DNA of 64,000 bases from NCBI GenBank assembly GCA_035315185.1, contig DATFYE010000203.1:26101-90100 (forward strand), read 5' to 3'. Both the position numbers and the translations under genes were made by a program. This DNA comes from Syntrophorhabdales bacterium. GTDB lineage: Bacteria > Desulfobacterota > Syntrophorhabdia > Syntrophorhabdales > WCHB1-27. Numbering within the stretch: the stretch's first letter is position 1; each line of letters begins with the position of its first letter. The notes beneath the pieces are model-generated. The model did not search any database. It saw only the letters and a list, made by a program, of their open reading frames with translations, and was not told the DNA's origin. Below, in pieces: positions 19,273-33,989 of the stretch.

Positions 19273-20208
19273 ATGAATATTTATCTGCCCATTGCGCACA
19301 TGAGCGTAAACATCTTTCTCCTGGTGGGCCTCGGTGGGTTAGTAGGTTTTCTTTCGGGTCTGTTTGGCGTAGGGGGAGGCTTCCTCTTGACTCCTCTTCT
19401 TATTTTTGCCGGAATTCCGCCGATGGTTGCTGCAGCCAGCGATTCGAATCAGATCGTGGCTGGTGCTGCGTCCGGGGCCTACGCCCACAGCCGCATGGGG
19501 AACGTGGATTTCAAGATGGGCATCACCCTCCTTCTCGGCGGGATCACAGGAGGGTCCATAGGAGTGCAGATCATCAAAGTCCTGGCTGCGCTCGGCCAGG
19601 TAGACTTTGTCATTAAGCTCATCTACGTGGTAATCCTGGGACTGATCGGCGGCTTCATGTTTATCGAGAGTCTTACAGCTTTGAGACGCACACGGGCTGT
19701 GCCGGAAAATGACTTCTTCGTGGAACCGAGGGAATCAGCCCTGCGAAAGCTCGCCGCGAGACTCCCTTTGCAGATGACGTTCGAAAAATCGCACATGACC
19801 ACATCGGCTATCTTCCCGTTCTTCCTGGGGGCTGCTGTGGGACTCCTGGCTGCCATCATGGGTGTTGGCGGAGGATTCATCATGGTGCCGGCAATGATCT
19901 ATATCCTAGGCATGCCCACGATCGTCGCCATTGGCACGGATCTGTTCCAAATTGTGTTGACCTGCATCAATGTGACTATCCAGCAGGCGATACTCAACCA
20001 CACGGTTGACCTGGTTCTGGTAGTGGTCCTCTTTTTCGGTTCAACGATCGGCGCCCAAATCGGTGCCCGGGTTGGCAGGCGCCTTCGGGGAGAGCAACTG
20101 CGTATCCTTCTCGCCATCATCGTGCTGGTGGTGATGATCAAGATGGTCTACGATTTAGTGGTGACACCTGACAACGTTATCGGCCTCGCCAGGGGAGGTG
20201 GTCACTGA
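19273..20208 (+). CDS. TSUP (TauE/SafE) family anion permease 1
   Basis: It has the two-repeat signature GLFGVGGGFLLTPLL and AIMGVGGGFIMVPAM plus GTDLFQI. The start is the ATG at 19273 after GAAGGAG. Confidence 0.8.
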   Translation: MNIYLPIAHMSVNIFLLVGLGGLVGFLSGLFGVGGGFLLTPLLIFAGIPPMVAAASDSNQIVAGAASGAYAHSRMGNVDFKMGITLLLGGITGGSIGVQIIKVLAALGQVDFVIKLIYVVILGLIGGFMFIESLTALRRTRAVPENDFFVEPRESALRKLAARLPLQMTFEKSHMTTSAIFPFFLGAAVGLLAAIMGVGGGFIMVPAMIYILGMPTIVAIGTDLFQIVLTCINVTIQQAILNHTVDLVLVVVLFFGSTIGAQIGARVGRRLRGEQLRILLAIIVLVVMIKMVYDLVVTPDNVIGLARGGGH

Positions 20209-21011
20209 TGCGGTTATTGATAGTGACCTTTCTTGTCGTGACAGCTTCTTTCATCGCTTTGGTAAGTCTGGGAGATGCGGCGCAAGGGCCATCCGGGCCC
20301 GAATGTTTGCAGATGGATCCTCCATTCCTCGAAAGGACATTATTCCTTAAAGCCGTCCATACAATGACCATAACCGGGCCACGTCCTGAAGGGTGCGACA
20401 TCATTCTCAAAATTGTTTCTCCGGTCCGCGATTTCAGGCTGAACAAGTCCGGAAAGGGTCTCGGGTTTGTCTGGTTGCCCGTAGGCCATGCCGAGGTTAA
20501 GGAGATTCCCGCGATGTATCAGGTTCTGAGCTCGGCAAAGATTACAGATATCCTTCCCCCTGCCGAACAAGAGGCGACGGGCCTGACCCTGGACTACAAG
20601 GAAGTCTATGAGCAGTGCAAGGTCCATTTTGAAAAGGATATGCCGCACAATGAAATTTCCGCCCTACGCCGGGAATACGTTTCCGGATTAATCAAGATTT
20701 TCAAAGACGCAGGACTTTATCTCAGACAGGAAGGAGCGATCCAGATCAACGGGTCTCAATTCAGCGCACGAAGCGTGCAACCCTCTGACGCCCCTCTCGG
20801 TGAATATAAGGTCTTTTGCTATGCGGTCCAGGACGGCAAGGCCCGTCTCATTTTTCAGGACAAGTTTTTGGTCAAATCAGGAACGCTGGGTCAATGGCTT
20901 GCTTACCACGCCCAGGCGAGCCCGGTGATTTATGGAGTCCTGGCAGCGGTGATCGCAGTGGCAGCTGGACTACTCGTCGGTGTCGTTTTTAGAAAAGGTG
21001 GCTCACATTAG
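20208..21011 (+). CDS. periplasmic protein with C-terminal membrane anchor (architecture resembles TIGR02186/Alph_Pro_TM), TSUP partner
   Basis: Signal peptide, a soluble region of about 220 aa, a single C-terminal TM (VIYGVLAAVIAVAAGLLVGVVF) and a short basic tail. The start overlaps the TSUP stop (TGATG). It is homologous to the N-terminus of the 22239 protein. Confidence 0.6.
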   Translation: MRLLIVTFLVVTASFIALVSLGDAAQGPSGPECLQMDPPFLERTLFLKAVHTMTITGPRPEGCDIILKIVSPVRDFRLNKSGKGLGFVWLPVGHAEVKEIPAMYQVLSSAKITDILPPAEQEATGLTLDYKEVYEQCKVHFEKDMPHNEISALRREYVSGLIKIFKDAGLYLRQEGAIQINGSQFSARSVQPSDAPLGEYKVFCYAVQDGKARLIFQDKFLVKSGTLGQWLAYHAQASPVIYGVLAAVIAVAAGLLVGVVFRKGGSH

Positions 21012-21145
21012 ACTTTGCTTGGCTATAAGTCTGCTTCATACCCTTTTTCCGCCGCTAACCTGCTTCTTGTAGAAATACCCATGGGTCTTGCTTTCATATG
21101 GTGTCTGGATGAGCGCTGGCAGCTCGCTGACCAGTCCGTAGCCTG

Positions 21146-21296
21146 TTATACCAATTCGCCTTCAAGTGTATACCTTCGTTGTCGCTGCGGCGCTTTCCTC
21201 GACGTACTGCTCAGTACGCCTGCGTCAGCTCCTCGCTGCCGCCCGGGGTACCCGGCCGAAGGCTGGGTCGTCCATCTTGAATGCAGATTGGTATTA
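21146..21296 (+). repeat. MITE-like inverted-repeat element, long form, copy 3
   Basis: Termini are TTATACCAATTCGCCTTC ... GAATGCAGATTGGTATTAG. The internal GTACTGCTCAGTAC and GGGGTACCC palindromes are shared with the copy at 61924-62095. Confidence 0.55.
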
Positions 21297-21312
21297 GATT
21301 GGAGGTAAAGCT

Positions 21313-22230
21313 ATGAATATCTTCCTACCCATCGCACAGATGAGCGTGAGCATCCCGGTAATTTTTGCTGCGGGCGGGGTCGTCGGGCTGCTGTCCGGCC
21401 TCTTCGGCGTCGGCGGTGGGTTTCTGCTCACGCCGCTGCTGATGTTTTTAGGTATATCACCCGCCGTCGCGGCAGCTTCCGACGCGGCGGCTATCGTAGC
21501 AGGATCGACAACCGGTACGCTTGAACATTCACGGGGGCGCACAGTCGACTACAAAATGGGTTTCTGGCTCTTCGTGGGCGGATCCGTCGGTAGCGTCGCC
21601 GGCGTGGAATTGATCCACTGGCTTAACCGCTTCGGGCCTGCCAACAGTGCCATTCGCATCTTGTATTTAGTCATGCTCGGGGTGATCGGTGGCATTATGC
21701 TGGTGGAGTCAATCGGGCAATGGCGGCGCGGTGCGTATATGTCCGAGAGAAGATTCGAGCCGATACGCGCGCGGAGATGGGTCGAGGCCCTGCCGTTCCA
21801 GGTTCGATTTCCAAAGTCGGATATCCAGGTTTCGTTGCTGGTTCCGATTGGCTTCGGCATGCTGGCCGGTGTACTTGCGGCGATGATGGGTGTGGGCGGT
21901 GGCTTTATCATGATCCCGCTGATGCTTTACATATTGCGCATGCGGATACACGTGGCAGCGGGCACAAGTCTTTTTCAGATCCTTTGCACCTGCATGCTGG
22001 TCACCGTGTTGCAAGCCACGAAGAACCATACAGTAGACTTCGTGCTCGCCTTCCTCTTGGCTATAGGCACGACGACCGGCGCAATGATCGGTACCAGACT
22101 CGGGCGTCGATTGCGGGCCGACCAGCTCAAGATTCTAATGGCTCTAATCATCCTCATAGTAGCCTGCCAGATAGGGTGGAATCTTTTCAGCACGCCCGCG
22201 ACCTTCCTTTCGCATGTCGCGGGCGAATGA
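21313..22230 (+). CDS. TSUP (TauE/SafE) family anion permease 2
   Basis: It is a paralogue of 19273-20208, starting MNIFLPIAQMSV where that protein starts MNIYLPIAHMSV. It has GLFGVGGGFLLTPLL and AMMGVGGGFIMIPLM. GC-rich. Confidence 0.8.
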   Translation: MNIFLPIAQMSVSIPVIFAAGGVVGLLSGLFGVGGGFLLTPLLMFLGISPAVAAASDAAAIVAGSTTGTLEHSRGRTVDYKMGFWLFVGGSVGSVAGVELIHWLNRFGPANSAIRILYLVMLGVIGGIMLVESIGQWRRGAYMSERRFEPIRARRWVEALPFQVRFPKSDIQVSLLVPIGFGMLAGVLAAMMGVGGGFIMIPLMLYILRMRIHVAAGTSLFQILCTCMLVTVLQATKNHTVDFVLAFLLAIGTTTGAMIGTRLGRRLRADQLKILMALIILIVACQIGWNLFSTPATFLSHVAGE

Positions 22231-22238
22231 GGTGAGCC

Positions 22239-25200
22239 GTGAATAAGCAAAAAGCTCATGCTCTAAGCGTCGTGAGTATTGCAATCGGGCTGGTGTGGAT
22301 ACTTACCATTCCAGTCGCGCATGCGGCTAGGTTTTCTACAGTCGAGCCCACGCGTATCTCGGCCGGCGTGTTTTATGACGGCGCCACCTTGCACGTTCGG
22401 GGCAGCATCGGTGAGGGATCTCAAGTAGTGGTCCGGATAAAAGGGGCGTCAGAGCATCATGTGTTCAACCGTCGCGGCAAGATCGGCGGGATGGTGTGGG
22501 GCGGCATCGAACATGTCACGTTCCGGAACGCACCGAGCTTTTATGCGGTTTACACCTCGGTGGCCTTAGCGACGACGGCTACCCCGGCCTTGCGCGCAGA
22601 GCTCCAGCTCGGCTATGATCCGCTGGAGGCGAAGATGGAGGTTGAAGGAACAAAGGTCGATAAACACGTGATGATCACCCACTTCGTGCGCTTCAAGGAG
22701 AGCGAAGGTCTGTACCGCATCGCATCCGGAGCGGTGCACCTCGAAGACCCTCAAGGGGGCTCTCGCTCTTTTGATGTAGCGGTACCGTTGCCTGCTAGCA
22801 CGCCCCCCGGTGATCTGGAAGTCGCTGTCTTCGAACTCGCCAATGGCGCAGTGATCCGTGAAGAGACAGCCCGCGTGAGTCTTGAGCGGGTTGGCTTACC
22901 CGCCGATCTCTTTCGCCTGGCGCATGAGAACGGTATCCTCTTTGGGCTGCTCGCACTCTTCGTCACCGTTACAACCGGAGTCGTTGTGGATTTCCTCGGG
23001 CGAGTCGGACGAAGGGGGGCATTGTATAACCGCGGTCCCATGCTGGATGTGGCGGCAGACCTGCATCGGCTGGTTGCGGAAGGCCTGTTTAGCGTTCGCG
23101 TGAGACCGCGCTCCCCCGCGGCAGTGGAGCGCCTTCACGAGAAGTACCGACTCTTCCGTAACCTTCTCACGCTGAACAACGAACTCCTCGAACTCCTTGC
23201 AGAACTGGAGGAAGAATCGTCGTGGTCTTCACTGCGCCACCCGCGGGTGCGCATGGGTATCCGGGCGCTCTTCGACGGCACCGAGGATATGGTCCAGGTA
23301 TTGAACCAGCTCACAGGAAACCGCTATTTTGACCTGAAGAATGTGATCGCGAGCGTGCGTGCCGATGTTCTGGCCTACCTCGAGAAAATGCCAGAACGCG
23401 AGGGGAACTCCCTCATGCTCCAGTTGAGGGAGATCAGCTCGAAGACCGCGGATCAGGTGGGAGGCAAGGCCGTGAACCTGGCACGCGTGGAGTGCGATCT
23501 CGGAATGCGCGTGCCCGAGTCCTTCGTGGTAACCACGGAGGCTTATCGACAGTTGCTGGAGGTTGAAGGGCTCGCAGGCAAGTTGCGCACCGTCCTTGCG
23601 CCTGCGCGCCTCGACGCGCCGGAGGACTTTCGCCGGCGCTGCGAGATGGCACAAGGTTTGGTCCAGGAGGCGTATTTGCCGCCGGCTGTAGAGGAGGCTC
23701 TTCGCGCTGGTTACCGCGCCGCAGGCATCCCAGCGGGAGAGTGCGTCGCGGTGAGATCCAGCGCGGCGGGTGAAGATAGTGAGTTGTCCTTTGCCGGCCA
23801 GTTCGAAACGCTCCTCAACGTGCCTGAATCGGAGGTGCCGGAGGCCTGGAGGCGGGTTGTGGTCAGTCGGTTTTCACCTCGGGCCGTGTTCTATCGGCGG
23901 GCAGCAGGTCTCGCCGAAGTCGACACGCCCATGGCTGCGCTCATTCAGCGTATGGTGCGCGCCACGACCTCCGGTGTAATGTTCACACGTCGGCCTGAGC
24001 ACCCGAAGGTACCCGAGCTTCTCATCACCGCTGTCCGCGGGCTTGGCCTCGAAGTATCTGCCGGCATTGCGAGCGCCGACGAATTCGTAGTATCGCGTAC
24101 TCAGCCATCGCGGATCCTGGAGCGACGCATCGCCCTGAAGCCGGATCGCCTGGTAAGCGGGGAAGCCGGCGGCGTCACCAGAGTGGAGGAAGCAGCTGAG
24201 GAACAGGATAGTGCGGCGATCACCGACGAGGAGGTTATTCGGATCGCCGACGCGGGTCTCAGTCTCGATCGCTACTTTCGCAGTCCCCAAGACGTTGAAT
24301 GGGCTATCGACAGCGAGGGCGTACTCTTTATCATGCAGTCCCGGCCGATCAGGACCGACCGGACAAAGACCGCACCTGGAGACACACCCCGCAACGCCGT
24401 GCTCCTTTTGCACGGTGGGGAGCCTGTCTGGGCTGGACGGGCCGTCGGCCCGGTCCACGTGGCGAGGAGCCCGGAAGAGGAGGACCGCACTCCGACCGGT
24501 GCCCTCCTTGTGGTTCCCCAGCTCCTGCCTGATTGCGTGCGTCTTCTTCCGCGGGTGTGCGGTATCGTGGTGGAGCGCGGAACCGTCACCGGCCACGCTG
24601 CGTCGATCTTGCGGGAGTTTCGGGTGCCGAGCCTCTTCGGCGTGACAGGCGCGCTTGATAAGCTGGTCTCCGGCCAGGTAGTGAGTCTCGACGTGGCTGC
24701 TCGCAGTCTGTTTGAGGGCGTTCTTTGGCCCGAGCTGCGCCAGCGTCTTGCTGTCAGGTTGCAGGGCCGCCGGACTACAGGATTGCCGGAGGTCCTGGCG
24801 GGAAAGCTCACGAAGCTGAGTGGGAGCGGTTTTATGGGTACCTGGGCGTGTCAGTCCCTGCATGATGTCATCCGGTTCGCCCATGAGATGGCCATCCAAT
24901 CGATGTTCGACATCGGTGACCGGCTTCTGGATTCGCCGGTTGGGGGCGTCAAGCGGCTTGATTCCCCTTCGAAGGCGTACATGCACATCGTCGATCTCGG
25001 GGGAGGGCTGCGGCCCGAGGCATTGTCGAACCAAAGCGTGAAGCCGGAGGATGTTGTATCGATTCCGTTCCAAGGACTCTGGCGCGGCTTGAGCGACCCG
25101 CGGTTCGAACGCAGCTCGGACGTCCCGGCCCAATCGATTCGGTCCGCCATCGGGACTGGCCTGGCAAGCGCAGGCCCGCGGGAGGGAAGCCCTAACTACG

Positions 25201-25616
25201 CCTGCATCACGGAGAGCTACCTTAACCTCAATTCACGGCAGGTCCACCACTTCGCGATCGTCGACGCGTTCCTTTCTGACAACCAAAATAACAACCACAT
25301 CAGTCTTCGCATGAAAGGCGGCGGCGGTGCCCCTTGGCAACGCAACCTTCGGGCAGAGTTTGTCGCAGAGGTCCTACGTTTGCACCATTTTACCGTCGAC
25401 GTCGCAGGCGATCTCGTGAATGGCTGGACCCGAGGACTCGACCTTTCCATGGGCGCTGACAAGCTGACAATGATCGGGCACTTGCTCAGCTTTTCAGCGC
25501 TGCTCGATCTCTGGATAACGGGCGAAGCCCAGATGAAACGATACGTTGCGGAATTCGTGGAAGCGGAGGCTCGCCGCTCAGCAGATGATTCTCAAGCCGA
25601 TCCAAAGGGGGTATGA
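22239..25616 (+). CDS. fusion protein: periplasmic/anchor TSUP-partner domain + dikinase core (ATP-grasp + swivel His) + family C-terminal domain (P1)
   Basis: 1125 aa with a GTG start after GAGGTGAG. Residues 1-250 are homologous to the 20208 protein (NRRGKIGGMVW vs NKSGKGLGFVW; PSFYAVYTS vs PAMYQVLSS). A TM helix follows. The remainder carries VGGKAVNL, VRSSAAGEDSELSFAGQ, DVEWAID, TVTGHAASILREF and the C-terminal NY.CI.ESYLNLNSR.VHHF..VDA block. Confidence 0.8.
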   Translation: MNKQKAHALSVVSIAIGLVWILTIPVAHAARFSTVEPTRISAGVFYDGATLHVRGSIGEGSQVVVRIKGASEHHVFNRRGKIGGMVWGGIEHVTFRNAPSFYAVYTSVALATTATPALRAELQLGYDPLEAKMEVEGTKVDKHVMITHFVRFKESEGLYRIASGAVHLEDPQGGSRSFDVAVPLPASTPPGDLEVAVFELANGAVIREETARVSLERVGLPADLFRLAHENGILFGLLALFVTVTTGVVVDFLGRVGRRGALYNRGPMLDVAADLHRLVAEGLFSVRVRPRSPAAVERLHEKYRLFRNLLTLNNELLELLAELEEESSWSSLRHPRVRMGIRALFDGTEDMVQVLNQLTGNRYFDLKNVIASVRADVLAYLEKMPEREGNSLMLQLREISSKTADQVGGKAVNLARVECDLGMRVPESFVVTTEAYRQLLEVEGLAGKLRTVLAPARLDAPEDFRRRCEMAQGLVQEAYLPPAVEEALRAGYRAAGIPAGECVAVRSSAAGEDSELSFAGQFETLLNVPESEVPEAWRRVVVSRFSPRAVFYRRAAGLAEVDTPMAALIQRMVRATTSGVMFTRRPEHPKVPELLITAVRGLGLEVSAGIASADEFVVSRTQPSRILERRIALKPDRLVSGEAGGVTRVEEAAEEQDSAAITDEEVIRIADAGLSLDRYFRSPQDVEWAIDSEGVLFIMQSRPIRTDRTKTAPGDTPRNAVLLLHGGEPVWAGRAVGPVHVARSPEEEDRTPTGALLVVPQLLPDCVRLLPRVCGIVVERGTVTGHAASILREFRVPSLFGVTGALDKLVSGQVVSLDVAARSLFEGVLWPELRQRLAVRLQGRRTTGLPEVLAGKLTKLSGSGFMGTWACQSLHDVIRFAHEMAIQSMFDIGDRLLDSPVGGVKRLDSPSKAYMHIVDLGGGLRPEALSNQSVKPEDVVSIPFQGLWRGLSDPRFERSSDVPAQSIRSAIGTGLASAGPREGSPNYACITESYLNLNSRQVHHFAIVDAFLSDNQNNNHISLRMKGGGGAPWQRNLRAEFVAEVLRLHHFTVDVAGDLVNGWTRGLDLSMGADKLTMIGHLLSFSALLDLWITGEAQMKRYVAEFVEAEARRSADDSQADPKGV

Positions 25617-25624
25617 GAGACGGC

Positions 25625-25700
25625 TTATACCAAGTTGCCTTCGTTCATATAGCTTCGTTGCCTGCGCCTCGCTCTATTTTTGAATGCAACTTGGTAATAC
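25625..25700 (+). repeat. MITE-like inverted-repeat element, short form, copy 1
   Basis: TTATACCAAGTTGCCTTCGTTCATA ... GCGCCTCGCTCTATTTTTGAATGCAACTTGGTAATAC. Both ends are near-identical to the reverse complement of the ends of 61924-62095. Confidence 0.55.
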
Positions 25701-25713
25701 AATTGTCACTCAT

Positions 25714-28305
25714 TCAGTGTGTGACTGTTTTCTTGAAAGTGTAATTCCCCTGCATGAAGGCTTTGATGTACCAATCAACTACATTGTCACTGTACATCGC
25801 CATATCGAGCTGGCGCGCGCAACACATGAGCCTGCCCAGGTAATCGAGCTTCTGTTCTATAGCCCGGCACTCGTATTTCCCTAATCGGGCCCGCAACCAG
25901 TCTCCTTTCACCTCTACATCAAAGTCCAGGTTCTTTAAAACCCCCGCAATGAAGCGGACCCTGCGGGATCTCCTTTCCGAGCTGGAGCCTCCTCCCATAA
26001 ACTGAAATGAAATATAGTTATTATTCACCTCGGGCGAGCAGTAGGCATCGACTGTGCTGAAATGATAGGCCAGACGCGAACTGAAGTTCATATATTCCTT
26101 GGAGATGATGGCGTAACTCTTTTCACCCAATGGAGTGCCCGTGCGGGCGGAATCGGAGAGTGTATTCAACATAACGGAGGCAAAGCCTTTGAGGTCAACC
26201 TCTACCATCCCAGTCCAGCAGATCTTCGGATGGGTTATTCCTCTCCACAGGGCCTGCATCGGTCTCGAAACGATCTCTTCCGGTGGTACAGAACCCCCGG
26301 CCTTGTCCGGGACAGATAAGCCCCCGCCCAGATCGATGATGTACAGATTGATAGGGATGTCGGAAACAACCTGCTTGGCCTGTTTGTCAGAAGACGTTTT
26401 CCAGTCGTGTAGATGGAACATCTCCTGGATGGCGACTTCATGCATGAAGCGGGTCAGGTCATGAAAGGTCTGGCAGTTTTCAGGTTTGAAAGAGCCTCCT
26501 TTCGTGTCCCATAAATTGAGAGATGCGGTACGCGAGAGGAGCTCCTCCACTTTTCTCACGAGGGGGGTCTCCCCACGGATTTCCACTTCTCTTCTCTTAT
26601 GGCCCCGGACCAACTCCTGCACCAATCCGTCGTAGACCTTGTTGTGGTAGGCATCTACTGTGATCATCTGGCCGTGTCGCAGCAGTTTGGTGGCATCCTT
26701 AGCATCGACGATAGTAGGGACTTGAGATTCTCTCGCGAGAGAAGCCATATGGCCGGCCACGTTACCTACCTCAGTGATGATTGCCGAGGCTTCATCCATG
26801 ACGGTGGCATATTTCGGATGGGTACTCTTAACGACCAGAACAGCCCCATGTGGAAACGGGTGCAAATCCCGGTCTTCAAGCACCATGTGGACTGGACCAG
26901 CCCCAACGCCCGGTGCAGCCGCGAGACCCCAATTGATGAGGACTCTATCTGTATAAGGATCGTGCTCGACGTCTTCCTCTTTCGTCTCCGTCGACCCCGA
27001 AGAAATTTTTAGATTGCGCGTTTGCAATATATAAATCTTCCCTTCTGAATCTATTGCCCATTCGATATCACGAGGGCTCTGATAATACTCCTCCAAGAGC
27101 ATGGCGTAGCGAAAGAGTTTTTTAATCTCGTCTTCATTGAGGCACGGCTGCTGCTGAAGTTCGTCGGGAACCGGCACTTCGGTTACGCCCCCCGAGTCCC
27201 TGCAAACGAGCATTGTCCTTTGTTCAGGGATCCTTTTTTCCAAAAGAAGGCCGTTTTCTTTGGAGACTACATAAACGTTCGGGCTGGCCCGCTCCGCAAC
27301 GAGTTCCCCCAAACCCCATATGGCGCTGATGATCACCACGTTTGGGTCGCTATGGCTGGGGTCCCGGGAGAATATCACTCCGCTGGTTCTAGCACAGATC
27401 ATGGCTTGGCAACCCACAGCCATAGGGATGTCTTCTTCGTTGAATCCTTTTTCTTTCCAATAGAAGATGGCTTCAGGCGTGAATTTGCTGGCGACAACTT
27501 CTTTGTAAGCGGAGAGGAGGCGATCGGGACGGACGTTCAACACGGTGGCGTATTGTCCTGCGAAGCTGACATCGCCGTCTTCCTTGATTGCACTGCTACG
27601 GACCGAGACAGAAATTTCTCCTTGCCCGCCTGTCCTCACGGCCGTGGATAGTCGATTGTATGCTTGGAAGATGGCTTCTTCCAATTCGAGCGGAATAGAT
27701 GCATCGTGAATGGCTTCCCGAACCTCGTGGCTGATTCGATCCAAGGCTTGCTGGTCACGAATGTCAAGGGCAGCTAATCGCTTCTTGATCTCTTTTCCGA
27801 AAACCATTTTTTCGACAAAGATTTTGTAAGCGTACGCGGAGACCGCAAACCCTTCCGGAATGGGAAGCCCGACATGGTTTCGCATTTCTCCCAGATTAGC
27901 GCTTTTGCCCCCCACTGTTTCGCCCATCTCCCTGGTAACCTCTTCCAGCGGGATAGTCAGGGGGGAGAGAGCGATCTCTCTGACACCGAAAACCTTTTCT
28001 TCAATCCCGTGGTCTATCTTTTCAAACACCTCATACAGCAAACCGTACCGATCTGGAACCATGCTGTTCAGCGCGTCGATCATCTGCAGGACCTTTTCCC
28101 GTACTTGATTGTAACTGTCCCGTATGTACCGACGGTCGAAGTGATAATCTCCCTGGGCATACTTCCCTTCCATATCACCCATGACCTCTAGGGCGGCGTT
28201 ATTCGCCTCGAGGAGGGCCTGAAACGATTGAAAGCGTTCTTTTAGACTCGGGAGTTTCTGCTTTTTAAAATATTTTTGGAGATTCAATAATCCAAAAAGG
28301 GCCAC
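25714..28305 (-). CDS. dikinase-core protein with family-specific C-terminal domain (P2)
   Basis: 863 aa with a GTG start after AAGGAG. Motifs present: VGGKSANLGEM, PEGFAVSAYAY, VRSSAIKEDGDVSFAGQ, DIEWAIDSEGKIYILQTR, NVAGHMASLARE, and C-terminal DLGGG, ALWRG, NFSSRLAYHFSTVDA, NYISFQFMGGG, RQLDM. Confidence 0.8.
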   Translation of the reverse strand: MALFGLLNLQKYFKKQKLPSLKERFQSFQALLEANNAALEVMGDMEGKYAQGDYHFDRRYIRDSYNQVREKVLQMIDALNSMVPDRYGLLYEVFEKIDHGIEEKVFGVREIALSPLTIPLEEVTREMGETVGGKSANLGEMRNHVGLPIPEGFAVSAYAYKIFVEKMVFGKEIKKRLAALDIRDQQALDRISHEVREAIHDASIPLELEEAIFQAYNRLSTAVRTGGQGEISVSVRSSAIKEDGDVSFAGQYATVLNVRPDRLLSAYKEVVASKFTPEAIFYWKEKGFNEEDIPMAVGCQAMICARTSGVIFSRDPSHSDPNVVIISAIWGLGELVAERASPNVYVVSKENGLLLEKRIPEQRTMLVCRDSGGVTEVPVPDELQQQPCLNEDEIKKLFRYAMLLEEYYQSPRDIEWAIDSEGKIYILQTRNLKISSGSTETKEEDVEHDPYTDRVLINWGLAAAPGVGAGPVHMVLEDRDLHPFPHGAVLVVKSTHPKYATVMDEASAIITEVGNVAGHMASLARESQVPTIVDAKDATKLLRHGQMITVDAYHNKVYDGLVQELVRGHKRREVEIRGETPLVRKVEELLSRTASLNLWDTKGGSFKPENCQTFHDLTRFMHEVAIQEMFHLHDWKTSSDKQAKQVVSDIPINLYIIDLGGGLSVPDKAGGSVPPEEIVSRPMQALWRGITHPKICWTGMVEVDLKGFASVMLNTLSDSARTGTPLGEKSYAIISKEYMNFSSRLAYHFSTVDAYCSPEVNNNYISFQFMGGGSSSERRSRRVRFIAGVLKNLDFDVEVKGDWLRARLGKYECRAIEQKLDYLGRLMCCARQLDMAMYSDNVVDWYIKAFMQGNYTFKKTVTH

Positions 28306-28429
28306 GCAAAGAACTCCTTGAAATCTTTGCTAGATAAGCAACTAAAGACTATTTTTCTCTCCCTGCCTGTGCGTGACAGTAGACTCCCCCGTAAACCAGC
28401 CGGTTTGAGTAGAGGAAAATTTGTAATCT

Positions 28430-28458
28430 ATTATCTCAGAGAGGGCACTGGGGGTCAA
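28430..28458 (-). promoter_or_regulatory. possible sigma70 promoter for P2
   Basis: On the minus strand: TTGACC, 17-nt spacer, GATAAT. It lies about 125 nt upstream of the GTG at 28305. Confidence 0.3.
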
Positions 28459-28580
28459 GGCAAAGGGCTAACTTTCCACCTGTGCGTCGAACGATCGGTC
28501 AGCTCGGGAGAGCGAGGGTTATAGTTGCTGACAGGTTCTTTTTTGCAGTATGCTGTGTGAAATTCACCCAGGAAGGCCTC

Positions 28581-28766
28581 ATGCGGTTTCTTGCCTATTT
28601 GAACCAGTTAGTCCGTGGCTCAGTCTCCATCGATGGGAGGTTTCATCCCCACCCAATGTATATCTTTATGAATCTTGTTGTCCCGGTCATTTTGGGGGTG
28701 CTTCTGGCAGGGGGTATCAAGATCGTGCATTGGATACTCGCTCCTCATGAAAAGAGAAACAACTGA
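28581..28766 (+). CDS. small hydrophobic protein (hypothetical)
   Basis: 61 aa from the internal ATG after AGGAAGG, with one predicted TM (LVVPVILGVLLAGGIKIV). It ends 2 nt before the next gene. No similarity recognised. Confidence 0.3.
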   Translation: MRFLAYLNQLVRGSVSIDGRFHPHPMYIFMNLVVPVILGVLLAGGIKIVHWILAPHEKRNN

Positions 28767-28768
28767 AC

Positions 28769-29743
28769 ATGGATAGCACGTCTCTTTTCCCGATCGTACA
28801 GTACTGGGCTCACGTGCAGGGCATGATAACGCATGTGACCTTGACCGGAGTAATCTTCCTGGGACTCTTCATCGGTCTCCTGGCGGGGTTCTTCGGGATC
28901 GGCGGGCAGCTTTTCATGACGCCTCTTCTCAATATCCTGTTCAACATCCCTTACAATGTGGTGGTGGGCTCTGAACTCTGCCAGATGTTGGGCCATTCTT
29001 CGATGAACGCTTTGAAATACAGACTCTCGCGTAATGTGGATTATAAGCTCGCTTTTCTCCTGGCGATCGGGGGCGCTGCCGGCGTAGAAGGCGGAGCGAG
29101 ACTACTCGAACTATTGAAATTTGCTAAAGCGGCAACATTTCTGGGCAGGCCCCTTGATCTGATGTTTGTGATAATCAGCCTCTTGAATGCAGCTCTTCTC
29201 CTCTGGATTGGTACTACGATTTACAGGGAGACAAGGGTGGCGCACCGGCGGTCCGGAGTGGGAACCATTGCCACCGTTCAGATGGATGTCACGTCCAGGC
29301 TGCAAACGATTTGTATTCGGCCAATGATATCCCTGCCTGTTTCGGGGATTGAGAATGTTTCTCTCTGGATCGTTTTGGGCGTCGGGTTTTCAGTCGGCCT
29401 GCTCGTTGGTTTTCTCGGTGTCGGGGGCAGCTTTATCGGCCTGCCGGCTCTAGTTTACATTCTCGGCTGCCCCATGGGAGTGGCGATCAGCACAGACCTT
29501 TTCCAAAGTCTCTTTGTGACGGGATACGGTGCCTATACTCACTCCTTTAAAGGGAATATCGACCTCACCCTAGCCATTGTTCTTCTCACCTGTACCACGC
29601 TCGGAACACAGGTGAGTCTTCCTTTGGCCAGGAGATACAGCGGATCGAAGGTGCGCCAGGCATTCGCTTTTCTAGCCTACCTGGTGGTGCTTCTACTGAT
29701 CATTAAGTTCTGCAGTCTTATTGGAATGATCAGGGTTTTATGA
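28769..29743 (+). CDS. TSUP (TauE/SafE) family anion permease 3
   Basis: 324 aa and polytopic. It has GFFGIGGQLFMTPLL and GFLGVGGSFIGLPAL plus STDLFQS. Confidence 0.75.
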   Translation: MDSTSLFPIVQYWAHVQGMITHVTLTGVIFLGLFIGLLAGFFGIGGQLFMTPLLNILFNIPYNVVVGSELCQMLGHSSMNALKYRLSRNVDYKLAFLLAIGGAAGVEGGARLLELLKFAKAATFLGRPLDLMFVIISLLNAALLLWIGTTIYRETRVAHRRSGVGTIATVQMDVTSRLQTICIRPMISLPVSGIENVSLWIVLGVGFSVGLLVGFLGVGGSFIGLPALVYILGCPMGVAISTDLFQSLFVTGYGAYTHSFKGNIDLTLAIVLLTCTTLGTQVSLPLARRYSGSKVRQAFAFLAYLVVLLLIIKFCSLIGMIRVL

Positions 29744-29792
29744 TTCTAAAATTCTCACACATCGAATCGTTATACTGCTATTATTGAAATAA

Positions 29793-29855
29793 AACTTATT
29801 GATACTATAACAATTAATGATTTGACTTGGTGTGGCCGGCCAATATAATTTCGGC
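29793..29855 (+). promoter_or_regulatory. conserved promoter/operator block, copy B
   Basis: AACTTATTGATACTATAACAATTAATGATTTGACT, then 16 nt, then TATAAT. Confidence 0.5.
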
Positions 29856-29884
29856 AAGGAGCTTCAACCTTAGCTGAGCCGTTT

Positions 29885-31159
29885 ATGTCCGACGGAGGAC
29901 GTTTGAACCTCGGTAGACAGGTTTTTGAGTTCTTGCAAGCTGCGTCCGTCGCCCATGCCAAGTGGGATCTGGAAGTCTCCACGAACATAATAAAAAGTCC
30001 GAAGCGACTCTTTATCCTCCTCATCCTTCTGCTCCCTATCCTTGCGGTGGCGGTCTGTGAAGCGACGATACTCGGGGGAGAAAGCGCCTATGCTCCGGCC
30101 ACGTATTCCACCAAGATATTCTTGGTTTCCATCGTGATCGGTCTTTGCGCCGGCTTGATCACCGGCTGCATCGGTGCCGGGGGAGGGTTCATTATTACCC
30201 CGGCTCTCATGGCTGCTGGTATAAAAGGTATACTCGCCGTTGGTACAGACCTCTTCCACATATTTGCCAAGGCAATCATGGGGACCGCCATTCATCGGAA
30301 GTTAGGTAACGTTTCAGTGAAGTTGGCCGCGGCCTTCCTGGTGGGGTCGGCAGTAGGCACTGTTCTTGGCGGGACTGTCAACAAGGCAATCTATAACATA
30401 AATCCCCTTCTCAGCAATCTGTTTATTAGCGTCATTTATTCTTTTCTTCTTGGATTTCTCGGGTTCTACGGGCTTTACGATTTTCTCAGGGCGACTCGCA
30501 AAACAACGAAGTCCTCGGCCAAAGACAAGGGGCAAGGAGCGCACTCGGGCCGCACGGGGATGACCGGCGTGGCAGTCAAGCTTCAGCATCTGAATATTCC
30601 GCCTATGCTCACGTTCGATGAAGACCTCGGGGGTCGTCGTATCCCTGCTGTAGTCGTGATGCTGGGAGGGCTGATAGTCGGAACTCTCGCGTCCCTCATG
30701 GGCGTGGGGGGCGGCTTTGTGACCTTTCCCATGTTCGTTTATATTTTCGGGGTTTCCTCCATGACGACGGTGGGGACGGATATCCTCCAGATCATCGTCA
30801 CAGCAGGCCTTGGCGCAATCGGTCAGTACGCCATTTACGGCTACGTTTTCTACTCCCTGGCCATGGGGATGCTTCTGGGTTCCCTGATCGGTATTCAAGT
30901 GGGAGCCTTGACCACCAAAGTGGTCAGAGGAATCCATATCAGGGGATTCTATGCTGTCTCTATTCTGGCTGGGTTCGTCAACAGGGCAGCAACTCTCCCC
31001 AAACAAGTGAACGAACTGGAGATCCTCAAGATCCCTTCCTGGATCTCAGGACCGATCGATCTCATAGGTACCATTGTTTTCTGGGCTGTAACCGGTTTCT
31101 TTGGTCTCTGGGTTTTGAGCAAGTTCTTTGGTAACCTCAAAGCCCTTCGGGAGGAATAG
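29885..31159 (+). CDS. TSUP-family permease 4, long form
   Basis: 424 aa. It has GCIGAGGGFIITPAL..GTDLFHI and SLMGVGGGFVTFPMF..GTDILQI. The start codon is uncertain. Confidence 0.75.
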   Translation: MSDGGRLNLGRQVFEFLQAASVAHAKWDLEVSTNIIKSPKRLFILLILLLPILAVAVCEATILGGESAYAPATYSTKIFLVSIVIGLCAGLITGCIGAGGGFIITPALMAAGIKGILAVGTDLFHIFAKAIMGTAIHRKLGNVSVKLAAAFLVGSAVGTVLGGTVNKAIYNINPLLSNLFISVIYSFLLGFLGFYGLYDFLRATRKTTKSSAKDKGQGAHSGRTGMTGVAVKLQHLNIPPMLTFDEDLGGRRIPAVVVMLGGLIVGTLASLMGVGGGFVTFPMFVYIFGVSSMTTVGTDILQIIVTAGLGAIGQYAIYGYVFYSLAMGMLLGSLIGIQVGALTTKVVRGIHIRGFYAVSILAGFVNRAATLPKQVNELEILKIPSWISGPIDLIGTIVFWAVTGFFGLWVLSKFFGNLKALREE

Positions 31160-31162
31160 AAG

Positions 31163-31870
31163 ATGCTGATCGCCCGAAAAGGCCCTTTCATCCTTGGTAT
31201 GTTGCTATCCCTCTCCTTCGTCGGAGTACTCGCCCTCATCTTCTCACCCGTTTTTGGAGGCAAGAACGGGCTGGATTACGCTGACGATCTCTTCAACAAA
31301 TTATCCAAAGGATCCTCTTATTTTATCCCTAAACTGGTAAAGAAGAACGAGCAGAACGTGGGCAAATCATTTCGAGCCGTCTTCACTGTGGAAAAAAGGA
31401 GCGAGCAGATTGCAGAGGTCTTTGAGGCGGCGGGAGCAAGGGTCGACTTGCAGGGGAATAGCATGACCGTAGAAGGAGACCTGGGAAAGCTCTGCCAATC
31501 TGCTCTGGAGGATGCAAACTACGTGTTTAATAATGACGGCTCCAAAGTAGCAACGAGGTACGGCCGGGACGAACGTCAGGTCATGCAAGACTGGTGGACA
31601 GGTCTCACCAGGATGGAGAAATCATTTAAGAAAAATATGCAGATCAAAGAATCGGAAGCAATCTCTGAAGTAGTTCGGAAAGCTGTTGAACCTGCTTACA
31701 ACTTTTACAACGTGGAGGCGCAGAACGTGTCCGATCGCTGGGGCCTCATGTCCCTTATGCTGATTTTTTATGTGCTCTATACATTGTGGTGGGGCTATGC
31801 GATTCTGTATCTCTTTTTGGGATTGGGTCTCAGCATGAAGAGGGCCAAGGTGAAAAAAGAAGTGGGTTGA
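31163..31870 (+). CDS. membrane protein of unknown function (TM - soluble domain - TM)
   Basis: 235 aa with a GGGAGGAA Shine-Dalgarno, tightly packed after the permease. It has an N-terminal TM and C-terminal hydrophobic helices. No family recognised. Confidence 0.55.
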   Translation: MLIARKGPFILGMLLSLSFVGVLALIFSPVFGGKNGLDYADDLFNKLSKGSSYFIPKLVKKNEQNVGKSFRAVFTVEKRSEQIAEVFEAAGARVDLQGNSMTVEGDLGKLCQSALEDANYVFNNDGSKVATRYGRDERQVMQDWWTGLTRMEKSFKKNMQIKESEAISEVVRKAVEPAYNFYNVEAQNVSDRWGLMSLMLIFYVLYTLWWGYAILYLFLGLGLSMKRAKVKKEVG

Positions 31871-31903
31871 AGACGGGCCGGAAATAATGAAAGGAGGTTA
31901 AGG

Positions 31904-32197
31904 ATGATCGCTTTTCTAAGAAGGACGTCTGTTATGGCGTTACTTATGACCGCACTCCTGTCTGGCGTGGCCTTGGCCGCAGAAGGAGGGCCCACGTTAG
32001 TAATCGTGGCAGATACCCGGGGGCTGAGCGGACCCCTGGCATGGTTGGCCAACCTGTACAATGAAAGCCATCTCTATTTTACGGTTTTCACGGCAATCGC
32101 TGTTCCGGCCATGGGCCTCATTCTAGGCCTGCTCGCAGACGTAGTGATGCGCAAGATCGGTCTCGATCTAAAGTCGAGGAAACTGGCAGAGCGCTAG
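31904..32197 (+). CDS. small exported/membrane protein of unknown function
   Basis: 97 aa with an AAAGGAGG Shine-Dalgarno, a signal-like N-terminus (ALLMTALLSGVALA) and one further TM. Confidence 0.5.
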   Translation: MIAFLRRTSVMALLMTALLSGVALAAEGGPTLVIVADTRGLSGPLAWLANLYNESHLYFTVFTAIAVPAMGLILGLLADVVMRKIGLDLKSRKLAER

Positions 32198-32226
32198 GAG
32201 TTACTTTAGCCGAAGGAGGTTCGACC

Positions 32227-33297
32227 ATGGATTTTCTCTATCTTCAATTACCCATATCAGGTGTCGTCATTTTCTGGCCAGGACTCGTTATCCTCGGCTT
32301 CGGCTGCGGAATGATCGGCGGCTTTTTTGGCATGGCCGGCGCCTGGATGGTAACTCCCGGTCTTAATATTTTGGGCCTTCCCATGGCCTTTGCCATCGGC
32401 ACCGATATCGCTCACATGGCTGGGAAGTCCATTATTTCCACCATGAGGCACGGCAAGTTCGGCAATGTCGATTACCGGATAGGGTTCATCATGGTTTTGG
32501 GCACGGTCATCGGGATCGAAGCGGGCGCCCAGATGATCATGTGGTTCGAACGAATCGGCAAAGTAGACCTTTATGTACGCTGGCTTTACGTTATTCTCCT
32601 CACCCTGATTGCCTGGATGGTTTTCGGTGACCTGGCCAAAAGAAAGAAGAAGGAACGGGAGGCTGCCGCAGCCGGAAAGACATTGGACGACCTGGCTACC
32701 GGGATCGAATGGTATAAGACCCTGCACAAAATCCGCATCCCTCCGATGATCCATTTTAAGACCGCCGGGATTTACTGCTCCATGTGGCTGCCCGTGCTCA
32801 TAGCCTTTCTTACGGGCTGGCTTGCGGGTATTCTGGGCATTGGCGGCGGCTTGATCCGGATGCCCTCCCTCGTCTATTTCATGGGATGCCCTACCCACAT
32901 AGCTGTGGGGACCGACCTTTTTGAAGTCATGATTTCCGGTCTCTATGGAGCCGCCACGTACGCGTATAAGGGTCGGGTGGAATTCGTTGCCGCAGTCATA
33001 ATGCTGCTCGGCGCTGCTGTCGGGGCTCAGATCGGAACGGTTGCAACTAAATATGTCAAGGGGTACGGGATCAGAGTTGCCTTTGGTTGGGCCGTGATCG
33101 GGTGCGGGCTCTCCGTAGTCATGAAGCTCCTTCCCACGTATTTTCCGTCCTGGAAGCCCGTCACGAACGTTGCAGCAACAATACTGATCCTTGGACTGGT
33201 AGGCAGCATATCACTCTATATCCTTGTTCGGATGCTCAGGGGCGCCGCACAGGAATTGGCAGCGAAGAAGGCGGGGGCTTTGAGCGTGTCGAATTAA
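32227..33297 (+). CDS. TSUP-family permease 5, long form
   Basis: 356 aa with a GAAGGAGG Shine-Dalgarno. It has GGFFGMAGAWMVTPGL..GTDIAHM and GILGIGGGLIRMPSL..GTDLFEV. Confidence 0.75.
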   Translation: MDFLYLQLPISGVVIFWPGLVILGFGCGMIGGFFGMAGAWMVTPGLNILGLPMAFAIGTDIAHMAGKSIISTMRHGKFGNVDYRIGFIMVLGTVIGIEAGAQMIMWFERIGKVDLYVRWLYVILLTLIAWMVFGDLAKRKKKEREAAAAGKTLDDLATGIEWYKTLHKIRIPPMIHFKTAGIYCSMWLPVLIAFLTGWLAGILGIGGGLIRMPSLVYFMGCPTHIAVGTDLFEVMISGLYGAATYAYKGRVEFVAAVIMLLGAAVGAQIGTVATKYVKGYGIRVAFGWAVIGCGLSVVMKLLPTYFPSWKPVTNVAATILILGLVGSISLYILVRMLRGAAQELAAKKAGALSVSN

Positions 33298-33331
33298 CCC
33301 CAAATCGTCTACGTATAGGGAGAGACTCTGC

Positions 33332-33943: not shown

Positions 33944-33989
33944 GAGGGCGGAAGATAGAGTTGGCTTCCAGCTGTCGGCAAGAAACTCT

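Follow-up and report, generated by a model that had tools for sequence, protein, structure and literature searches.

Five TSUP permease genes with conserved partner genes, and a promoter block shared with sat and dsrAB, in a Syntrophorhabdales bacterium

How sulfate enters sulfate-reducing cells is still an unsettled question. Desulfovibrio vulgaris has three SulP genes, none of which is essential, and in two of the sulfate reducers studied by Marietou et al. (2018) TSUP genes are the sole candidates (PMC5840216). The window analyzed here, 64,000 nucleotides from a Syntrophorhabdales bacterium (contig DATFYE010000203.1), carries five TSUP permease genes within 14 kb, in a region that also holds sat. 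What do so many permeases of one family do there? Canonical carriers are encoded elsewhere in this genome, nine of the DASS family and one, full-length, of the SulP family, and proteomics in Desulfobacteraceae favours these two families for sulfate uptake. The host lineage is a wetland bacterium, and close copies of the window DNA were found in low-sulfate wetlands and soils.

Five permeases of four subfamilies and their partner genes

An earlier note on this DNA described five TSUP permeases with a duplicated glycine-rich motif and a GTD-type motif, in three size classes and in unusual concentration. Our analysis agrees on each point. All five ORFs (T1 to T5) match the TauE model PF01925 (TSUP, TC 2.A.102) over nearly all of its 237 positions (from 1–2 to 233–237), with scores of 123–163 bits against a curated cut-off of 32.6 bits. 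In the alignment of the five proteins, a G-x-G-G motif followed by T or P is found in both halves, together with a GTD/GTS/STD motif. Numbered as in T1, the invariant residues are G29, G32, G35, T40 and P41 in the first half and G197, G199, G200 and P206 in the second. A crude hydropathy scan separates 6–9 hydrophobic segments per protein, in a family whose members have about eight helices. The proteins measure 311/305/324, 356 and 424 aa, and the 5.4-Mb genome has only three TSUP genes outside this 14-kb stretch (8 in total). They are not recent tandem copies: T1 and T2 are 51% identical, T3, T4 and T5 share 27–30% identity with T1, and the five belong to four subfamilies (27–51% identity). 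The features of the region are as follows.

18230–18265, + strand: promoter block copy 1, 5′ of the putative CK2a-T1-APTM-T2-fusion operon (pattern match, 2 mismatches)
18360–19238, + strand: CK2a, cytidylate-kinase-like P-loop protein with a BON domain (PF13189, E 2e-33)
19273–20208, + strand: T1, TSUP permease, 311 aa (PF01925, E 1.8e-47)
20208–21011, + strand: APTMa, Alph_Pro_TM/TIGR02186 bitopic membrane protein, T1 partner (PF09608, E 2.9e-35)
21313–22230, + strand: T2, TSUP permease, 305 aa (PF01925, E 1.5e-47)
22239–25616, + strand: fusion of Alph_Pro_TM with PPDK_N/PEP-utiliser (dikinase-like) domains, 1125 aa (Pfam: PF09608, E 8.2e-42; PF01326, E 1.1e-73; PF00391, E 1.3e-13)
25714–28305, − strand: dikinase-like protein, PPDK_N and mobile His domain (PF01326, E 6.2e-91)
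28482–28766, + strand: p94, small single-TM protein 5′ of T3, T3 partner (locus conservation)
28769–29743, + strand: T3, TSUP permease, 324 aa (PF01925, E 2.1e-35)
29793–29849, + strand: promoter block copy 2 with TTGACT-16 nt-TATAAT, 5′ of T4 (exact pattern match)
29885–31159, + strand: T4, TSUP permease with an N-terminal extension, 424 aa (PF01925, E 1.1e-35)
31163–31870, + strand: p235, two-TM membrane protein, T4 partner (locus conservation)
31904–32197, + strand: p97, small exported or anchored protein, T5 partner (locus conservation)
32227–33297, + strand: T5, TSUP permease, 356 aa (PF01925, E 9.6e-42)
33332–33943, + strand: DUF4881 lipoprotein, periplasmic, all-beta, T5 partner (PF16222, E 4.1e-74)
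33990–34814, + strand: p274, two-TM membrane protein of the T5 module (locus conservation)
34842–36515, + strand: dCache histidine kinase (Pfam)
36539–36937, + strand: stand-alone receiver, end of the T4-T5 gene string (Pfam)
50009–50044, + strand: promoter block copy 3, 5′ of CK2b at 50095–51015 (pattern match, PWM)
51114–51149, + strand: promoter block copy 4, 5′ of sat at 51346–52602 (pattern match, PWM)

Each kind of permease is accompanied by its own small gene or genes. CK2a, whose paralogue CK2b is 73–78% identical at the nucleotide level, is the first gene of the T1 string. APTMa has hydrophobic segments at its N and C termini; an Alph_Pro_TM gene lies 3′ of the T1 homologues in most Desulfobacterota loci, and the arrangement T1-APTM-dikinase-like is kept in many Desulfobacterota. 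The dikinase-like protein at 25714–28305 is one of five paralogues in the window. T3 is sparsely distributed: of 200 genomes of the phylum, 8 have it, usually near T4. Its homologues are preceded by p94 in 3 of 5 other loci (30–33% identity, E 4e-7 to 5e-11). p235 lies 3′ of T4 in other phyla and in Solidesulfovibrio. A Pfam search matched no family for p94, p235 or p274.

T5 is the most conserved class, with 60–79% identity across phyla. Among 80 T5 loci, p97 is 5′ of T5 in all, with 19 invariant residues in its alignment, and the DUF4881 gene is 3′ in 79, so that the trio is present in 79–80; p274 was found in 53, and homologues of the kinase and receiver follow the module in 38–39. The genes of the T4-T5 string are separated by 3–46 nt. 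The AF2 model of the DUF4881 lipoprotein (pLDDT 87.6) has an OB-like beta fold. Complex prediction gave 0.46 for T5 with p97 and 0.00 for the best control, with at least 83% of contacts agreeing between runs and a partner pLDDT of at least 59. Of 80 solved complexes, 58 passed the mark used, as did 2 of 110 mismatches; passes at 0.60 or under comprise 7 of the 80 solved complexes and both mismatches, so the prediction weakly supports the T5-p97 pairing.

A promoter block shared with sat and dsrAB

The earlier note also proposed that one TSUP operon shares a promoter block with sat. Our results showed that this sharing is real and wider than supposed. The 36-nt block occurs at exactly five sites in the genome, before CK2a-T1-T2, T4-T5, CK2b, sat and dsrAB. 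Four copies lie in the window, starting at 18230, 29793, 50009 and 51114 (0.00 expected by chance), and the fifth is just outside, 5′ of dsrA, with a sequence identical to that of copy 4. The five sites score 54–61 bits with the PWM (53.8 for copy 1), compared to 16.6 for the next-best site of the genome. sat itself was identified by PF01747 and PF14306. In copy 2 the block (29793–29828) runs into TTGACT-16 nt-TATAAT (29822–29849), the best sigma-70-like site within 17.8–37.2 kb (11/12), and the region upstream of T4 resembles those of CK2b and sat over 70 nt. The spacing between TTGAC and TATAAT is not constant among the copies (16 to 22 nt), so that any promoter layout read from it is tentative. 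T3 has no block of its own.

The block was also found in seven related genomes of three genera, before dsrA, sat, CK2 (G006, G011, G014 and G019), T1 orthologues (82% identity), T2 orthologues (89–92% identity; G013, G009 and G014) and APTM. In these relatives it additionally precedes fhs-cooC-folD, of the Wood-Ljungdahl pathway, and an ADP-forming acetyl-CoA synthetase/GNAT gene, which means that the regulon may be one of core energy metabolism and not specific to sulfur.

A LysR gene (PF00126 and PF03466) starts 14–28 nt from one block copy. It abuts the block in every genome examined, beside the dsrA site in four (the present one, G006, G011 and G019) and beside the sat site in G013. The gene is divergent from its target and adjoins the putative operator, as is usual in LysR-type regulons, and the block contains TTAT-N7-ATAA, which reads as a LysR-type T-N11-A box. 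The best model for the protein is a “selenium metabolism-associated LysR”, with a score below the cut-off, and not CysB. Most probably the block is the site at which the LysR-type regulator whose gene adjoins dsrA acts, in which case the cell would produce four of its five permeases here, all but T3, along with the enzymes of sulfate reduction. What is new in the TSUP/sulfate-reduction picture is this proposed regulon link.

Distribution, proposed function and alternatives

We surveyed 200 genomes of the phylum for orthologues of T1, T4 and T5. Where DsrA and AprA occur together (83 genomes), 69 have at least one; the corresponding numbers are 5 of 17 for genomes with DsrA but not AprA and 1 of 97 for those with neither, counts that overstate the significance since related genomes are not independent samples. 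T4 orthologues alone were detected in 56 genomes, 53 of which have dsrA. In Acidobacteriota, the T5 module is located inside sat/apr/qmo clusters; the gene order is qmoABC-sat-p97-T5-DUF4881-fusion-T1-T1-APTM-CK2 in Korobacteraceae and aprBA..p97-T5-DUF4881-dsrN-sat in Bryobacteraceae. Three independent lines, the shared cis-element, the restriction of orthologues to genomes with dsrA and aprA and this embedding, make the tie of the permeases to dissimilatory sulfate reduction well supported. That part of the sulfur-oxyanion role proposed in the earlier note therefore stands. Its statement that the genes adjoin the sulfate-reduction core fits this genome only loosely, with 18 kb between the last TSUP gene and the start of sat; in related genomes the T1 module does lie about 5 kb or less from sat.

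We propose that the region codes for multi-subunit TSUP secondary permeases of four kinds, which have small membrane or periplasmic proteins as dedicated partners: Alph_Pro_TM for T1 and T2 (once as the dikinase-like fusion), p94 for T3, p235 for T4, and p97, DUF4881 and p274 for T5. Two strings behind the block, CK2a-T1-APTM-T2-fusion and T4-p235-p97-T5-DUF4881-p274-kinase-receiver, would each be co-transcribed under the LysR regulator acting at the block. The permeases would move sulfate, sulfite or thiosulfate, and their likeliest job would be the uptake of electron-acceptor anions, that is sulfate and possibly thiosulfate or sulfite. The several modules may differ in affinity or specificity, and the neighbouring kinases, receivers and dikinase-like proteins may tune them. 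We hold this explanation, partnered TSUP modules for acceptor uptake in a LysR regulon shared with sat and dsrAB, to be somewhat more probable than its negation. A stronger version is possible but tentative: the TSUP modules, above all p97-T5-DUF4881 and T4-p235, would be dedicated sulfate/thiosulfate importers in many sulfate reducers, with a LysR regulon joining transport, sat and dsrAB here.

The permeases could instead supply anaerobic energy metabolism in general with a different small solute, an inorganic ion or a metabolite such as a metal, another anion or a cofactor precursor, and the block would mark highly expressed genes of core catabolism. The block copies before fhs-cooC-folD and the acetyl-CoA synthetase/GNAT gene of relatives are consistent with this, as is the T5-type cluster of Desulfovibrio, DVU0146-DVU0150, which is induced in sulfate-free syntrophy (PMC4265775). 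T1-type homologues (53–58% identity) are also found in aerobic Alphaproteobacteria, and the one locus examined there has no sulfur genes close by; NCBIfam gives T1 a weak match to the TauE domain of MamO, a magnetosome protein from a non-sulfur context, and the weak matches of the DUF4881 model include the metal/haem chaperones SilB-C and CcmE, at noise level (Z ~6). However, the near confinement of the orthologues to genomes with dsrA and aprA, when half of the sampled genomes of the phylum lack both, the Acidobacteriota T5 trio between sat and other sulfate-reduction genes, and the fact that the characterised TSUP members cited in the literature on these systems all handle sulfur oxyanions or sulfonates make such a substrate rather unlikely. 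Export is less probable again. Here the permeases would be TauE-like exporters of sulfite, or of sulfate in disproportionating or reverse operation, with a protective role or one in keeping the pathway in balance. TauE, after which the family is named, is described as exporting sulfite, and co-expression with DsrAB would fit control of its toxic substrate. In Dissulfuribacter, a TauE protein and a “co-occurring transmembrane protein” rose under thiosulfate disproportionation, and export by such a pair was proposed from this proteome (PMC13490349). Yet regulated uptake is the better match for four different multi-subunit modules, of which one has a periplasmic lipoprotein and several have sensor kinases. 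The nitrate resistance seen in Desulfovibrio argues for inward leakage through a related cluster (PMC4001038), and a T5-type cluster that is induced when sulfate is absent is at odds with sulfite detoxification.

It is very unlikely that the clustering is functionally meaningless, a simple build-up of transporter and signalling genes that were gained laterally and happen to share a variable stretch with the sulfate-reduction genes as neighbours. Some acquisition is indicated by the sequences: among 21 other genomes of the family, T4 was detected in none and T5 in one, and the nearest relatives of the T4-T5 operon (75–79%) lack the block, so this operon was probably acquired. GC content ranges from 0.49 to 0.60 across the region, and the 28–50 kb stretch is absent from the compact layout of related genera. 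Against mere accretion, the acquired operon carries the block specific to the family, the T1/T2 modules keep both their place beside sat and the block across genera, and in other phyla these modules again lie close to one another and to sat.

The locus gives a testable set of permease-partner modules whose distribution tracks the complete Sat/Apr/Dsr pathway, and a precise cis-element with a named candidate regulator linking two TSUP operons with sat and dsrAB. Should our preferred reading, acceptor uptake by partnered modules, be confirmed, the textbook pathway would gain a transporter class and a regulator, and the modules could mark sulfate reducers in wetlands and soils poor in sulfate.

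Comparison with known systems

TauE of Cupriavidus necator, a sulfite exporter, and CysZ of Corynebacterium glutamicum, a sulfate importer, are PF01925 proteins like the window permeases, and their substrates are small sulfur oxyanions, as proposed here. They have been described as stand-alone permeases whose genes belong to sulfonate-degradation or cysteine-assimilation operons, whereas the window TSUPs have dedicated partners and no such neighbours among the window's Pfam annotations. Assignment as TauE sensu stricto was rejected, as these annotations include no sulfoacetaldehyde/taurine or sulfolactate catabolic gene. In enterobacteria, the CysB/Cbl regulon places sulfate transport, activation and reduction under LysR-type control. 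The likeness lies in a LysR gene beside its target and one operator type, putative in the present genome, before transporter, ATP sulfurylase and sulfite reductase; it is an analogy only, since the pathway here is dissimilatory and the regulator is not CysB-like by model score.

Marietou et al. (2018) proposed TSUPs as candidate sulfate carriers, among them the strongly conserved “clade B” (DVU2958), present in 25 of 44 sulfate reducers from six phyla and a possible sulfate carrier. Some TSUP genes near sat and apr were already recorded there, most being far from the pathway genes (PMC5840216). The window permeases belong to the same family and invite the same idea; that study defined no partner subunits and no regulon and made no functional call (PMC5840216).

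The gene order of DVU0146-DVU0150 in D. vulgaris (small exported protein, TSUP, lipoprotein, membrane proteins) is that of the T5 module, and it is present in the window as p97-T5-DUF4881-p274. Published primers encode KFGNVDY/VRWI for DVU0149 and FSMPDHT/SLRFM for DVU0148 (PMC4641369, PMC4265775), and these peptides match invariant motifs of the T5 and DUF4881 alignments. The Desulfovibrio cluster is driven by sigma-54 with the activator DVU0151 (PMC4265775, PMC4641369), and a divergent sigma-54 activator with a −24/−12 promoter was found in 34 of 80 T5 loci. The window trio differs: it stands behind T4-p235 and the sat/dsrAB-type block, no sigma-54 activator gene adjoins the T4-T5 string, and no −24/−12 promoter was detected near 29.8 or 31.9 kb, in-window matches being as many as expected by chance. 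The earlier note expected expression to follow sulfur-anion availability; the Desulfovibrio counterpart does respond, yet in an unexpected direction, being up without sulfate (PMC4265775).

The “nitrate cluster” DVU0251-DVU0245 has the same cast as the window: a TauE permease, a small partner, a histidine kinase, a receiver and a PPDK_N/mobile-domain protein. Solidesulfovibrio sp. DCME served as a proxy for it. There, a TSUP gene precedes a kinase-receiver-dikinase-like string; its product shares 25% identity with T4 over ~100 residues (E 1.5e-5) and does not match T1, T2, T3 or T5. A window TSUP as orthologue of the nitrate cluster was therefore rejected, and the nitrate-cluster type appears to be a further subfamily. 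Mutants of DVU0251-DVU0245 are nitrate-resistant and grow slightly worse on thiosulfate, and a leaky thiosulfate importer was proposed (Korte et al. 2014, PMC4001038). Among clusters of this type, DVU0251-DVU0245 alone has a genetic phenotype.

Five TSUP permeases and their partner proteins

The earlier note described five TSUP permease genes carrying the family motifs. Our analysis bears this out: all five proteins (T1-T5) gave full-length matches to Pfam PF01925 (E 1e-35 to 2e-47), and the glycine-rich motif in each half and the GTD-type motif were both seen in their alignment, so the observation made from the sequence was correct. The permeases, the two cytidylate-kinase-like paralogues (CK2a and CK2b) and the dikinase-like paralogues are located as follows.

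18360-19238, plus strand: CK2a, PF13189, with a BON domain below Pfam's cut-off; directly behind a promoter block
19273-20208, plus strand: T1, PF01925 (TauE/TSUP)
21313-22230, plus strand: T2, PF01925 (TauE/TSUP)
22239-25616, plus strand: dikinase-like paralogue (fusion), PPDK_N and mobile His domain
25714-28305, minus strand: dikinase-like paralogue, PPDK_N and mobile His domain
28769-29743, plus strand: T3, PF01925 (TauE/TSUP)
29885-31159, plus strand: T4, PF01925 (TauE/TSUP)
32227-33297, plus strand: T5, PF01925 (TauE/TSUP)
36934-39531, minus strand: dikinase-like paralogue, PPDK_N and mobile His domain
40144-42753, minus strand: dikinase-like paralogue, PPDK_N and mobile His domain
47291-49843, minus strand: dikinase-like paralogue, PPDK_N and mobile His domain
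50095-51015: CK2b, PF13189, paralogue of CK2a; directly behind a promoter block

T1 and T2 share 51% identity, whereas T3, T4 and T5 are just 27-30% identical to T1; the cluster is therefore a gathering of four old subfamilies and no recent tandem array. It holds five of the eight TSUP genes of the 5.4-Mb genome (97% complete). The sulfate-reducer core in the window comprises a H+-pyrophosphatase gene and, between 51 and 60 kb, sat, aprBA and qmoABC; dsrAB, dsrN, dsrC and dsrMK begin 4 kb past its end.

Each permease has its own partners. T1 is followed by an Alph_Pro_TM/TIGR02186 protein (APTM), and T2 by an Alph_Pro_TM domain fused to a PPDK_N/PEP-utiliser dikinase-like protein. A 94-aa single-helix protein (p94) precedes T3, and 3 of 5 loci with a T3 homologue have it in the same place; a 235-aa two-helix protein (p235) follows T4, a pair also present in Nitrospirota, other Desulfobacterota and Solidesulfovibrio. 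The neighbours of T5 are a 97-aa exported or anchored protein (p97), a DUF4881 lipoprotein and a 274-aa membrane protein (p274). We found the p97-T5-DUF4881 trio in 79-80 of 80 T5 loci, which span Desulfobaccales, Syntrophobacteraceae, Desulfobacterales, Desulfobulbus, Solidesulfovibrio, Nitrospirota and Acidobacteriota, among others, and p274 in 53. The five dikinase-like paralogues (850-1125 aa) combine a PPDK_N ATP-grasp with a mobile His domain and have no PEP/pyruvate barrel; such proteins adjoin T1, T3 and T5 modules in many phyla, including 48 of the 80 T5 loci. In related genera the CK2 orthologue is placed with the T1 module on one side and sat on the other; in Acidobacteriota it adjoins TSUP genes.

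Conservation of T5 across phyla is unusually high (mean column identity 73%, with many charged residues invariant). A PDB search with the T5-family profile returned no chain at E <= 1, and NCBIfam assigned no subfamily to T3, T4, T5, p235, DUF4881 or p274. Complex prediction for T5 with mature p97 scored 0.46 (best control 0.00), with at least 83% of contacts agreeing between runs and a partner pLDDT of at least 59. This lends weak support to a complex: of 80 solved complexes 58 passed the mark used, as did 2 of 110 mismatched pairs, but passing scores <= 0.60 came from just 7 of those 80 and from both of the mismatches. DUF4881 was modelled with confidence (pLDDT 87.6) as an all-beta protein with an OB-like fold; Foldseek gave no match to it at E <= 0.001, and a wide structural search returned generic OB-fold matches alone (Z <= 7.0), with no substrate hint. 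No similarity of p97 to p94 or to the 97-aa ORF after sat was found. A 10-pair hairpin with a T-rich run behind it is present at 34026-34052, just within p274 as annotated from 33990; either p274 truly starts 3' of this point, or the hairpin serves the preceding DUF4881 gene as an attenuator or terminator.

A promoter block and a candidate LysR-type regulator

The earlier note also proposed that one TSUP operon shares a promoter block with sat, which proved right and understated. The 36-nt block (consensus AACTTATnGATAyyATAAnAATTAATnAnTTGAC) occurs in 4 copies in the window, with 0.00 expected, and in 5 copies in the whole genome, one of them at dsrA, all on the same strand and inside 50 kb. 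With a weight matrix these sites score 54-61 bits, and the genome's next-best site 16.6. The blocks sit 52-200 nt 5' of CK2a, T4, CK2b, sat and dsrA. CK2a heads the string CK2a-T1-APTM-T2-fusion, and T4 the string T4-p235-p97-T5-DUF4881-p274-kinase-receiver (intergenic gaps 3-46 nt); T3 has no block copy. The region's best sigma-70-like promoter is located at the T4 copy (TTGACT-16 nt-TATAAT), and the distance from TTGAC to TATAAT at the other sites is 16-22 nt. Because this distance varies, we read the block as more than a -35 element, namely as a putative operator adjoining the core promoter. No credible sigma-54 promoter was detected in the window. Sequence runs matching 29700-34800 in whole or in part were from soil, wetland and peat DNA alone, with no RNA run among them.

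Among 40 related genomes, 7 from three genera carry the block, in 1-7 copies each. It precedes dsrA, sat, the CK2 orthologue, APTM and orthologues of T1 (82%) and T2 (89-92%), as well as a sigma-54 activator divergent from T1. This activator, which has no N-terminal sensor domain, has its own block copy in the related genera (L016:177-1433, minus strand; L030:1693-2886; L010:1872-3032). One genus shows a compact order, [block]T1-APTM-T1'-(dikinase-like)-[block]CK2-[block]sat-orf-aprBA-qmoABC ... LysR/[block]dsrAB-dsrN-dsrC. Block-like sites with 2-3 mismatches in a further set of genomes (f34) are AT-rich, have no reference gene nearby and are probably chance matches.

All genomes examined have a LysR-type gene whose start is 14-28 nt away from one block copy; it adjoins dsrA in four genomes and sat in G013. 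Its position here, outside the window, is as follows.

C203:93251-94153 (L006:3251-4153), minus strand: LysR-type regulator gene, divergent from dsrA
L006:4167-4202: block beside dsrA, 14 nt from the LysR-type gene

The block holds TTAT-N7-ATAA, which is compatible with the T-N11-A box of LysR-type regulators. We infer that the LysR-type protein acts at the block, which makes it a candidate for master control of sulfate-reduction genes in this family. Rex, the known sat repressor of Desulfovibrio, is probably not the block-binding factor, as its operator (TTGTGAA...TTCACAA) would not fit.

Distribution and history

In 200 evenly sampled genomes of the phylum we searched for dsrA (TIGR02064) and aprA (TIGR02061) as markers, and for each permease at orthologue-level thresholds. 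At least one of T1, T4 and T5 was present in 69 of the 83 genomes with both markers, 5 of the 17 with DsrA only, all 3 with AprA only (all fragmented) and 1 of the 97 with neither. This lone carrier is a fragmented genome whose genus mates have both markers. Within the 83, T5 was found in 43, T4 in 51 and T1 in 35; T3 is rare (8/200). Fisher values of 1e-11 to 1e-16 ignore kinship and overstate the association since related genomes are not independent; the carriers are spread across about 18 families. Outside the phylum, the T5 trio of Acidobacteriota lies within the pathway cluster in two arrangements, qmoABC-sat-p97-T5-DUF4881-fusion-T1-T1-APTM-CK2 and aprBA..p97-T5-DUF4881-dsrN-sat.

The T3-T5 segment looks acquired, because a search of 21 other genomes of the family found no T4, and T5 in just one, the closest relatives of both (75-79%) belong to other families, and the ~28-50 kb stretch is absent from the compact layout of related genera. 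Those other families are without the block. Over 70 nt, the first promoter of the segment is similar to those of CK2b and sat; an acquired operon bearing the family's own block would fit selection for being expressed together with the sulfate-reduction genes. The T2-fusion genes (22000-26000) have a GC content of 0.59-0.60, against 0.49 for T3/T4 (28000-30000), which fits a region pieced together from parts of different origin.

Role of the permeases and comparison with known systems

Cis-element, synteny and distribution together give good support to the tie between these permeases and dissimilatory sulfate reduction suggested in the earlier note. For substrate and direction of transport, which we infer, our preferred model is that of partner-dependent TSUP modules for regulated uptake of acceptor anions under a LysR-type regulon, and we hold it to be slightly better than an even bet. 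The main rival, in which the regulon is one of general energy metabolism and the permeases carry some other ion or metabolite, appears rather unlikely to us. In relatives, the block also precedes fhs-cooC-folD (Wood-Ljungdahl pathway, methyl branch) and the gene for an 890-aa fusion of an ADP-forming acetyl-CoA synthetase with a GNAT domain (loci L238, G013:C2:2512000-2521000, and L235, G006:C2:81000-90000). The regulon may therefore exceed sulfur and cover core energy metabolism.

Other findings also count against uptake of acceptor anions. T1-type homologues (53-58% identity) are common in aerobic Alphaproteobacteria. The context of one such homologue was uninformative: ABC permease, amidohydrolase and MgtE genes alone were nearby, and the ORF after it scored below Pfam's Alph_Pro_TM threshold. 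In many Desulfobacterota, the T1 module sits in a kinase-receiver-T1-APTM-dikinase-like-receiver operon away from sat/apr/dsr. The same genome also encodes nine DASS proteins and one SulP protein, and it is these families that proteomics of Desulfobacteraceae favours for sulfate uptake (PMC11887813). Of separate interest is a 376-aa MOT1-type (SulP-related) transporter, probably a molybdate carrier, encoded at 15544-16674, 2.7 kb 5' of the first block, because molybdate is a sulfate analogue and sat inhibitor.

Marietou et al. counted TSUP genes in 44 sulfate reducers, described a clade B of high conservation (DVU2958, Adeg_0175, Dret_2118), observed that sat/apr have TSUP genes nearby in some cases, and suggested that TSUPs might be the primary sulfate carriers in some species (PMC5840216). 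DVU0150-0146 are listed as the genes that DVU0151 controls through sigma-54, and their function is given as 'transmembrane transport' (Kazakov et al.; PMC4641369). These genes are up in sulfate-free syntrophic co-culture and down once sulfidogenic growth resumes (Qi et al.; PMC4265775). The primers of that study encode KFGNVDY and VRWI for DVU0149, and FSMPDHT and SLRFM for DVU0148 (PMC4265775). These peptides are invariant motifs in our T5 and DUF4881 alignments, and DVU0149/0148 are therefore the T5/DUF4881 pair. Such expression is what a scavenging importer switched on by lack of sulfate would show, but a sulfate-independent role would fit equally well.

Mutants of a TauE-hypothetical-kinase-receiver-PPDK_N cluster are nitrate-resistant and grow slightly more poorly on thiosulfate, and a leaky thiosulfate importer was proposed (Korte et al.; PMC4001038). 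A mutant of DVU0246, a Desulfovibrio relative of the dikinase-like proteins, shows nitrate resistance (PMC4001038). In a Solidesulfovibrio cluster of this composition the TSUP is just 25% identical to T4, and thus represents a fifth subfamily that has the same kinds of partner. The TSUP family and the general idea are already known; what is new is the partner architecture as a set, the conserved block that the TSUP strings have in common with sat and dsrAB, and the candidate regulator.
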